Positions 4,485 through 49,241 of a DNA stretch of 64,000 nt are shown here, one piece after another. Within the stretch, counting starts at the first letter, position 1. Every line of letters begins with the position of its first letter. Position numbers and translations under genes: made by a program. The notes beneath the pieces are model-generated. The model saw nothing but the letters and a program-made list of their open reading frames with translations, had not been told where the DNA came from and did no database searches. The stretch comes from a phage. The DNA is taken from the sequence record PZ445436.1; one strand, 5' to 3'.

Positions 4485-6109
<1,625 letters not shown>

Positions 6110-46682: not shown

Positions 46683-46899
46683 ATTGTTTTTCCGTTAATA
46701 CAGTAATATCATAGTAACAATCGGAAGAAGTTTTAACTGTGGAAATTTTATTGTCAAAATACTCACGAGTCATTTTATGAGTATAATATTTTTTACCATA
46801 AATGGTAATAGGCTGTTCTGGTCCTGGAACTTCTAACTCGCTTGGATTAGGAAGTGTAAAAAGAACGACACCAGAAGTATCTTTAAATCGTAAAATCAT
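46636..46899 (-). CDS. Hypothetical protein (nrdA.2-like position)
   Basis: 87-aa ORF; ATGA overlap with td; 47-nt overlap with downstream ORF. Confidence 0.5.
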
Positions 46900-47756
46900 A
46901 TTGCCATTTTCCCTTTAATTGCTGGATGCGATTCATAATTTTCAAGGATAAAATCTTTCGGTTTCATGTATTCAGTTAACCAGTAAAGCTGTGTTTCGGT
47001 GTCACAATTTTCAAACTCTATAGGCCAATCAATTTTAAGTTCACACAGTTCTTTAGGCTCACGACGTAAAATTTCTTTACATTGCTCAGTATGATTCATA
47101 TAGATGTGAGTATTACCACCAGAAAATATCAAATCTCCTGGGATAAGATTACACATCTTAGCCACAATATGCGTCAAGGCAGCGTACGAGGCAATGTTGA
47201 ACGGCAAACCCAAGAAAACATCTACACTTCTTTGGTACCATTGTAAATCAAGATAACCATTACGCACATTAAACTGATAGAACATATGACAGGGCGGTAA
47301 TGCCATTTGATTGATTTCAGCTGGATTCCATGCTGAAACGATTTGACGTCGATCAGTTGGTAATTTTTTAATACGATCAATAGTTTCAACTAATTGATCC
47401 ACACCACCGAAATCACGCCATTGTTTACCGTATATAGGACCAAGTTCACCACTATGATATCCTAGGTCTTTAGCTTGGTTTTCATAATTGTCATCCCAGA
47501 TAGTTTTACCTTGAATAAGACTACCGTGAGTAAGAAGACGTAAATCATTAACATTGGTAGAACCGGAAATAAACCATAAAAGCTCAGCAATGCATGCATT
47601 CCAGGCGAGCTTCTTAGTTGTTACTGCAGGAAAACCTTTAGTTAAATCCCAGCGTAATTTAGTACCGAACAAAGCAATTGTTCCTGTGCCCGTTCGGTCA
47701 TCGGTTTCATAGCCATTTTCAAAAATGTCTTTAATTAAATCTTGGTATTGTTTCAT
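46896..47756 (-). CDS. td: Thymidylate synthase, uninterrupted
   Basis: 286-aa contiguous ORF with active-site PPCH motif. Confidence 0.95.
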
Positions 47757-47801
47757 TTAGTACCTTATATAAATTATAATACATTTTATGAAGCTGAATA
47801 A

Positions 47802-48149
47802 TCAATACGGTTTAGCATCAAATTTTCTCTCAATTTCAGGTGTGAAATATAATTCTTTACCGCGTTTGGAAAAGCGACCAATAATATGATAATTATTCTC
47901 ATCAAACGTAATATTACCAATATCCATAGCTTTCAACCAAATATCGATATTTCTATCCAGCTTTATGTCAAAATTCCAATACGGAGAACTATTACCGAAA
48001 ATACTGCAAGCGGATTCAGTGAAACAACTGCTATAAATCTTGTCTTTAGGAACTACTAATTGATAGACACCTTTAATAAACTGAGGACCTTGCCATTTTG
48101 GCTGTTTCGTGTCTTTTTCTAATAGAATAGGGTAATAATTAAAATTCAT
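47802..48149 (-). CDS. Hypothetical protein inserted between frd and td
   Basis: 115-aa ORF with ATG start, 19 nt downstream of the frd stop; no recognisable motif. Confidence 0.6.
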   Translation of the reverse strand: MNFNYYPILLEKDTKQPKWQGPQFIKGVYQLVVPKDKIYSSCFTESACSIFGNSSPYWNFDIKLDRNIDIWLKAMDIGNITFDENNYHIIGRFSKRGKELYFTPEIERKFDAKPY

Positions 48150-48168
48150 ATTTCCGCCACGCGTTATT

Positions 48169-48989
<821 letters not shown>

Positions 48990-48998
48990 TATATTTCC

Positions 48999-49241
48999 TC
49001 AAACAGACTTTTTCACAATTTTCCAATCAGCTTTAAACTGATCGACGTCAGAATGATAAATCCAAAATCCTGCGCTTTCACCGTCTTCATAAAGCGGACA
49101 CCCATCACATTCATCTTCCCATCCCATGCCACGTAAAAGGTGTTCAGCTTTTTCAACAAGTTCAGAATCTTTACCGATGATATTAAAATACCATTTACCT
49201 CTAACTTCCGAATCTTTGATGCTCTGACGTTGTAATCTCAT
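48999..49241 (-). CDS. Hypothetical protein (frd.x cluster)
   Basis: 80-aa ORF preceded by early promoter. Confidence 0.55.
   Translation of the reverse strand: MRLQRQSIKDSEVRGKWYFNIIGKDSELVEKAEHLLRGMGWEDECDGCPLYEDGESAGFWIYHSDVDQFKADWKIVKKSV

Follow-up and report, generated by a model that had tools for sequence, protein, structure and literature searches.

A small gene between frd and td

We analysed a 64,000-nucleotide stretch of phage DNA (PZ445436.1), referred to here as the window, which comes from a Tequatrovirus. The genes for dihydrofolate reductase (frd) and thymidylate synthase (td) are separated in the window by an ORF whose product begins MNFNYYPILLEKDTKQPKWQGPQ, and Escherichia phage vB_Eco_QOTSP is 100% identical across this stretch (Table 1). 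A preliminary description of the locus had reported this ORF with its ATG start and the distances to both neighbours, and all of these coordinates hold; it gave no strand, which is minus. The ATG is preceded by a weak Shine-Dalgarno-like sequence, GGCGGAAAT. The description of td as intron-less is likewise correct, because its 286 codons run without interruption. The overlap of frd and td in phage T4 is an often-cited case of overlapping phage genes. In NC_000866 it is a 4-nt ATGA (frd 145109-145690, td ending at 145112), as had been stated from general knowledge. The flanks of the T4 junction are as in the window, but no gene lies between them.

Table 1. Features of the frd-td region in the window
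Feature	Position	Strand	Remarks
frd.1	48999..49241		
80-aa ORF	48747..48989	-	GTG start; overlaps frd start; between frd.1 and frd
frd (dihydrofolate reductase)	48169..48750	-	193 aa; 97.4% identity to T4 Frd
Left copy of 9-bp direct repeat TAAATGAAA	48167..48175	-	spans frd stop codon TGA, 48171-48169
frd/td.1 spacer, 19 nt	48150..48168	-	apparent relic of a 12-codon frd C-terminal extension
td.1 CDS	47802..48149	-	115 aa; ATG start, TGA stop; PHROG 1928 member; name from T2H record
td.1/td spacer, 45 nt	47757..47801	-	about 32 nt missing in F2, JoYop and NHEP36
Promoter-like segment TCAGCTTCATAAAATGTATTATAATTTATATA	roughly 47766..47797	-	TATAAT at 47778-47773; sigma-70-like match 9/12
Right copy of 9-bp direct repeat TAAATGAAA	47751..47759	-	spans td ATG, 47756-47754
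td (thymidylate synthase)	46896..47756	-	286 aa; uninterrupted
td position equivalent to T4 intron insertion site	47207/47206	-	from comparison with T4 exons

The ORF is an already catalogued hypothetical gene and not a new discovery. It is named td.1 in the GenBank entry of phage T2H (AY262132.2, ABI48932.1), and we use that name here. In the record of phage RB32 it appears as RB32ORF229c (YP_803171.1) with the annotators' remark "flanked by 9 bp repeat", a name that was taken over in the RB14 and RB51 records. These entries describe the same gene as the window ORF: the proteins are 97-99% identical, the location between frd and td and the 9-bp repeat on either side are shared, and there is no material difference. 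No function is given in the T2H or RB32 records or in PHROG 1928, and literature searches with gene names, accessions and peptide strings found no paper discussing td.1 or its function. The sequence is also absent from the text-form supplementary sequence tables of two systematic phage accessory-gene screens, which weighs neither for nor against an anti-defence role.

td.1 is widespread in its own genus and beyond. DNA comparison placed it in 353-358 of 536 phage records with matching frd/td flanks, and a tblastn search found it at 90% amino-acid identity or more in 362 records. Carriers include T2, T6, RB6, RB14, RB32, RB51, AR1 and wV7, and the protein is 100% identical in many Tequatrovirus records. 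Relatives below 60% identity occur in another 226 phage records.

A conserved family with a fixed place after frd

The product of td.1 matches PHROG 1928 at E=1e-35, with residues 4-111 aligned to profile positions 2-125 of 126. Searched in the other direction, the family HMM recovered the td.1 ORF from the window at E=8e-35 with no other match, and a six-frame translation of the window contained no td.1 paralogue. The family is small: a profile search of 1.84 billion representatives returned just 43 clusters, nearly all of them proteins of 95-139 aa. Large repeat proteins among these clusters (P0041, P0050 and P0053) were rejected as compositional noise, as their Pfam matches were to Ig-like repeats or were zero-stretch matches.

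Two forms of the family can be distinguished. Type 1 (about 100-116 aa) corresponds to td.1, and type 2 (about 117-139 aa) is a paralogue that matches PHROG 1928 at E=1e-33 to 1e-37. The type 2 proteins, among them PEi20 ORF-252, S16 gp154 and CC31p238, belong to the same PHROG and the same frd-td interval as td.1, and they share with it the motifs Q-K-x-W ... H-G-I-Y ... G-N ... G-R-F-x-K-x-G-x-x-x-x-F. They differ from td.1 in carrying an insert of about 20-40 residues after the first strand (consensus APTIxEYKxNPxKY), and are only 24-28% identical to it. The two types stand in tandem at many of the inspected loci. In the metagenomic locus L010 and in AmPh_EK29 the order is frd, td.1, the paralogue, an ORF of 68-69 aa and then td.

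At every carrier locus inspected, namely the window and 17 others from at least ten further genera, the gene directly 3' of frd and upstream of td belongs to the family. The other loci include PEi20 (Kanagawavirus), KP1 (Jiaodavirus), S16 (Gelderlandvirus), CBH8 (Winklervirus), CC31 (Karamvirus), Cronus (Roskildevirus), MP1 (Gualtarvirus), AmPh_EK29 (Marfavirus), two metagenomic contigs and Proteus phage PM2, where the placement after frd is probable, the ORF at the place of frd carrying no annotation. Identity between same-locus relatives in different genera falls to about 30%. At most inspected loci the start of the family gene overlaps the frd stop codon, an arrangement implying that the two genes would be translationally coupled in most genera. 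From this distribution, we regard it as well supported that td.1 belongs to the ancestral gene set of the T4-like (Straboviridae) phages of enterobacteria.

Some loci hold further genes or altered copies. Between the first family gene and td there can be one to three more small genes. In Morganella phage MP1 (L020 1801-3238) and Proteus phage PM2 (L017 829-2458), which are more distantly related Straboviridae, the frd-td interval contains three to four small genes. The td.1-family member comes first; the uncharacterised remainder comprises genes of 70, 81 and 185 aa in MP1 and of 90 aa in PM2. Protein P0015 (195 aa) joins an unrelated N-terminal part of 157 aa to the last 38 residues of a Klebsiella-phage td.1, and a match of this type is present in Klebsiella phage phi1_146043 (45942-46052). 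This chimera suggests a replacement or insertion event inside td.1 in some Jiaodavirus-like phage.

Judged by its substitution pattern, td.1 is a strongly constrained coding gene and is not hypervariable. In eight comparisons with the window its dN/dS is 0.00-0.13, at dS values of up to 0.8 within the genus and of 2-3 (to 2.9) against loci L010 and L011; the corresponding values are 0.04-0.11 for td and 0.06-0.31 for frd, those of td.1 being equal or lower. Conservation of td.1 within Tequatrovirus exceeds that of the neighbouring genes, at a dN/dS of about 0.05. Between genera the identities are 32-44% for td.1, 45-58% for Frd and 75-80% for Td.

Junction forms between frd and td

Surveying related phages confirmed the earlier suggestion that the frd-td junction is a variable site. 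Across Straboviridae the interval holds from zero to four small genes, and within Tequatrovirus at least four junction forms exist. In form A, the majority state and that of the window, td.1 stands between the 19-nt and 45-nt spacers. In form A', td.1 is tightly packed: in phages F2 and JoYop it overlaps frd by 11 nt and ends 13-15 nt ahead of td. Mosigvirus NHEP36 has the same form with a 4-nt frd overlap. Form B, found in 147 records, has in place of td.1 an unrelated ORF of 68 aa, which overlaps its neighbours at either end. Its representative in Yersinia phage fPS-65 (L008 1679-1885; product beginning MSNKLKVKDVPNAMALFICRQ) belongs to PHROG 9550, of unknown function; the ATG overlaps the frd stop and the stop codon overlaps the td ATG. 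Form C has no gene between frd and td and is seen in T4 and HY03, its count of roughly 40 or fewer of the 536 records being an estimate by subtraction.

The third gene of the L010 frd-td cassette (4670-4879) shares about 80% identity with the form B ORF. Alleles A and B thus resemble two different subsets of genes drawn from a larger cassette of the ancestor.

T4 as a probable deletion derivative

With T4 as the point of reference, the ORF had been described as an insertion between frd and td. The comparisons that we made lend good support to the reverse, namely that td.1 is the ancestral occupant of the frd-td interval and that the gene-less state of T4 is derived and rare.

The direction of change can be read from the 3' end of frd. 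In F2 (L012 894-1511) and JoYop (L013 798-1415) the gene encodes a Frd of 205 aa, with a 12-aa C-terminal extension (NEIATGGKYEF after ...SVYK). In these phages frd reads through the homologue of the 19-nt spacer of the window (…VYKNEIATGGKYEF*) and overlaps the start of td.1. Relative to them, the window and T4 share a 2-nt deletion that puts a TGA in frame and gives the present frd stop. Because frd of F2 and JoYop reads through it, the left copy of the 9-bp repeat is native frd sequence; the right copy is the native start region of td and is found in F2 too.

At this junction T4 is 416 bp shorter than the window, and its sequence is that of the window minus one repeat copy and the DNA between the copies, with exactly one copy kept. 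Since both repeats pre-existed and T4 has one, the 416 bp were probably lost in T4 by recombination between the repeats. In at least ten other genera td.1 directly follows frd, and this position, together with the 19-nt spacer as a relic of frd, also argues that T4 is a deletion derivative. This polarity argument combines parsimony with the reading frame of frd in F2 and JoYop.

The events may be ordered as follows. In the lineage of the window, the 2-nt deletion would have shortened frd and left the 19-nt spacer, and a promoter-like segment of about 32 nt would have been gained before td. In T4, a later and precise 416-bp deletion between the two native start-region repeats would have removed td.1 and created the ATGA overlap. 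On this account the textbook frd/td overlap of T4 would be a secondary and rare state; the commonest arrangement in its own genus is frd-td.1-td.

A similar change can be recognized in Mosigvirus. RB69 lacks td.1 and has an ATGA overlap of frd and td, and its junction fits a deletion between copies of TAAATGAA. NHEP36, whose Frd and Td are 97.4% and 97.6% identical to those of RB69, has td.1. RB69 thus appears to represent a parallel loss of td.1 within this genus.

The gene also seems to move between lineages. The td.1 copies of NHEP36 (L014 1501-1848) and Tequatrovirus F2 (L012 1501-1848) are 97.4% identical in nucleotide sequence, whereas the 3' ends of their frd genes are 28-66% identical and barely align. 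This combination of near-identical td.1 and divergent frd ends argues that td.1 is exchangeable by recombination and indicates a recent lateral transfer between Mosigvirus and Tequatrovirus, which would take place between co-infecting T-even lineages. Re-acquisition of td.1 by recombination therefore appears to happen and is possible for some lineages, which limits the polarity argument.

Predicted structure of the td.1 protein

An AlphaFold2 model built from a 48-sequence alignment has a pLDDT of 91.9 and a pTM of 0.85. It contains strands at residues 6-12, 27-34, 38-40, 48-50, 62-64, 80-82, 86-96 and 99-104 and a helix at residues 68-76. The td.1 product is accordingly predicted to be small, compact and rich in beta structure, with one helix. 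It is also mildly basic; most family members have a pI of 8-9.3. Across the 48 members only W19, G91, K95 and G97 are invariant, and G27, Y29, F93 and F102 are nearly so.

The protein had been described as lacking a recognisable motif, and sequence and profile searches likewise revealed none. Pfam (to E 10), NCBIfam and PADLOC scans of td.1 gave no match. A Pfam scan of the 48 family members gave scattered single matches only (E >= 0.011), and PDB sequence searches with the single protein and the family profile returned a best E of 0.12, which was spurious. Foldseek comparison of the model with BFVD retrieved uncharacterised T4-like phage proteins only. The 48-sequence alignment has no conserved Asp, Glu, His, Cys or Ser column; for this reason the protein is probably a binder and not an enzyme.

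Candidate functions of td.1

The invariant place behind frd, the overlap of start and stop codons, the constraint on the sequence and the lack of catalytic residues together suggest, tentatively, that td.1 belongs to the phage folate/thymidylate module as a dispensable binding partner without enzymatic activity. According to this proposal, td.1 would be made from the same message as Frd, usually in a coupled manner, and would partner dihydrofolate reductase or the thymidylate-synthesis module, tuning that module under some host or growth conditions. Position beside frd is weak evidence for a functional link because T4-like gene order can persist by inheritance. Any role in thymidylate synthesis would have to be dispensable, since T4, RB69 and about 140 allele-B phages are without td.1. 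We regard the account as a whole, with td.1 ancestral, lost from T4 and an accessory partner of the Frd/Td module, as somewhat more probable than its negation. A further version of this partnership seems unlikely: in it td.1 would have a fold unrecognised so far and would, as a non-enzymatic partner of dihydrofolate reductase, couple Frd to the Td/dNTP-synthesis complex or shield folate/thymidylate metabolism from host defence or antifolate stress. If it were true, the repeated precise loss in T4 and RB69 would reflect a host-dependent benefit. As a constrained gene that would be made together with Frd in many genera and whose product possibly has a new fold, td.1 is a well-defined functional target, and T4 and RB69 offer natural knock-outs for comparison.

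The preliminary description pointed instead to a host-takeover or anti-defence role, for which insertions at such junctions in T-even phages are typical sites. On this reading td.1 would be a small early protein that neutralises a host factor, such as a defence or nucleotide-depleting enzyme, and would be kept or lost according to host. Such a role would accord with the presence/absence polymorphism of td.1 in Tequatrovirus and Mosigvirus, its lateral exchange between genera, its dispensability in T4 and the small, non-enzymatic-looking product with no known fold. It would also accord with the divergence of td.1 between genera, which is faster than that of Td and mostly faster than that of Frd. 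Against it stand the low dN/dS within Tequatrovirus, where td.1 is more conserved than its neighbours, and its fixed place and apparent translational coupling to a metabolic gene in at least ten genera, which are unlike those of typical accessory-region genes. The negative PADLOC result concerns a library of defence systems, not of counter-defence. We found no specific support for the role, and given that td.1 is constrained and not hypervariable we consider it rather unlikely.

Nucleic-acid-binding domains of the OB fold (HIN-200, Cdc13, Teb1, S1 and RPA) were considered as well. In this fold five beta-strands form a closed barrel, and a helix lies between the third and the fourth. As a divergent, OB-fold-like nucleic-acid binder, td.1 might regulate the translation or mRNA stability of the frd-td-nrd transcripts, or might bind single-stranded DNA in connection with the replication/dNTP-synthesis machinery; we hold this to be improbable.

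A mobile origin of td.1, as a free-standing homing-endonuclease gene or the remnant of one that was inserted with the 9-bp repeats as its target-site duplication, is very unlikely and largely refuted. The idea has some precedent in annotation, as the KarlGJung entry bas37_0070 (MZ501089) labels td.1 a 'putative homing endonuclease'. Direct repeats of 9 bp flank the gene, a short 'GVYQL' string is reminiscent of the GIY motif in I-TevI, and the nearby nrd/td region of T-even phages hosts mobE and I-TevI. The seg and mob genes of these phages (for example mobE between nrdA and nrdB) are likewise optional small genes amid nucleotide-metabolism genes. Unlike them, td.1 has no nuclease motif or fold, occupies one locus across genera and is flanked by native repeats. 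An hhalign comparison of the family profile with I-TevI gave a probability of 0.4% over 12 columns, and none of the 48 members matched GIY-YIG, HNH or any other nuclease family in Pfam (E up to 1). Only G27 and Y29 of the 'G-I/V-Y' string are conserved. An HNH nuclease would be expected to show a conserved His-Asn-His catalytic motif; the window protein contains a single His and two Cys, and no column of the family alignment conserves His, Cys, Asp or Glu. The model showed no nuclease fold. The left repeat falls within the coding part of frd in F2 and JoYop, and the right one lies at the td start, which argues against a target-site duplication. The presence of td.1 at the same place in distant genera at 30-45% identity is consistent with mostly vertical descent.

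Conservation already refutes the idea that the ORF is a chance or non-functional open frame, in favour of which the weak Shine-Dalgarno-like sequence speaks. The reading frame stays open in hundreds of genomes and in relatives that share as little as about 25-30% identity, dN/dS is 0.02-0.13 at dS up to 0.8-2.9, and the fold is predicted with confidence.

The td.1/td spacer and neighbouring genes

The promoter-like segment of about 32 nt in the td.1/td spacer is conserved in RB32, T2H and KarlGJung and absent from F2, JoYop and NHEP36, in which the spacer is 13-15 nt. It may be a putative promoter for td. A MotA middle promoter was considered for the 45-nt spacer and rejected, as the box is mismatched (AGCTTCA) and stands only 10 nt from TATAAT; the T4 MotA consensus has the core TGCTT and a spacer of about 11-13 nt.

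On the other side of frd, the 80-aa ORF that overlaps the frd start belongs to PHROG 4308, of unknown function, and is present in RB32 (RB32ORF231c), fPS-65 and KarlGJung. T4 has a gap of only 71 nt at this site and so lacks a second small gene beside frd. The td gene of the window is a mosaic: roughly its first 180 nt share 90% or more identity with T4, T2H and RB32, and over the remaining 680 nt or so no sampled td comes closer than about 80%. Where T4 has its intron and the homing site of I-TevI, 21 of the 85 bases compared do not match the T4 exons.
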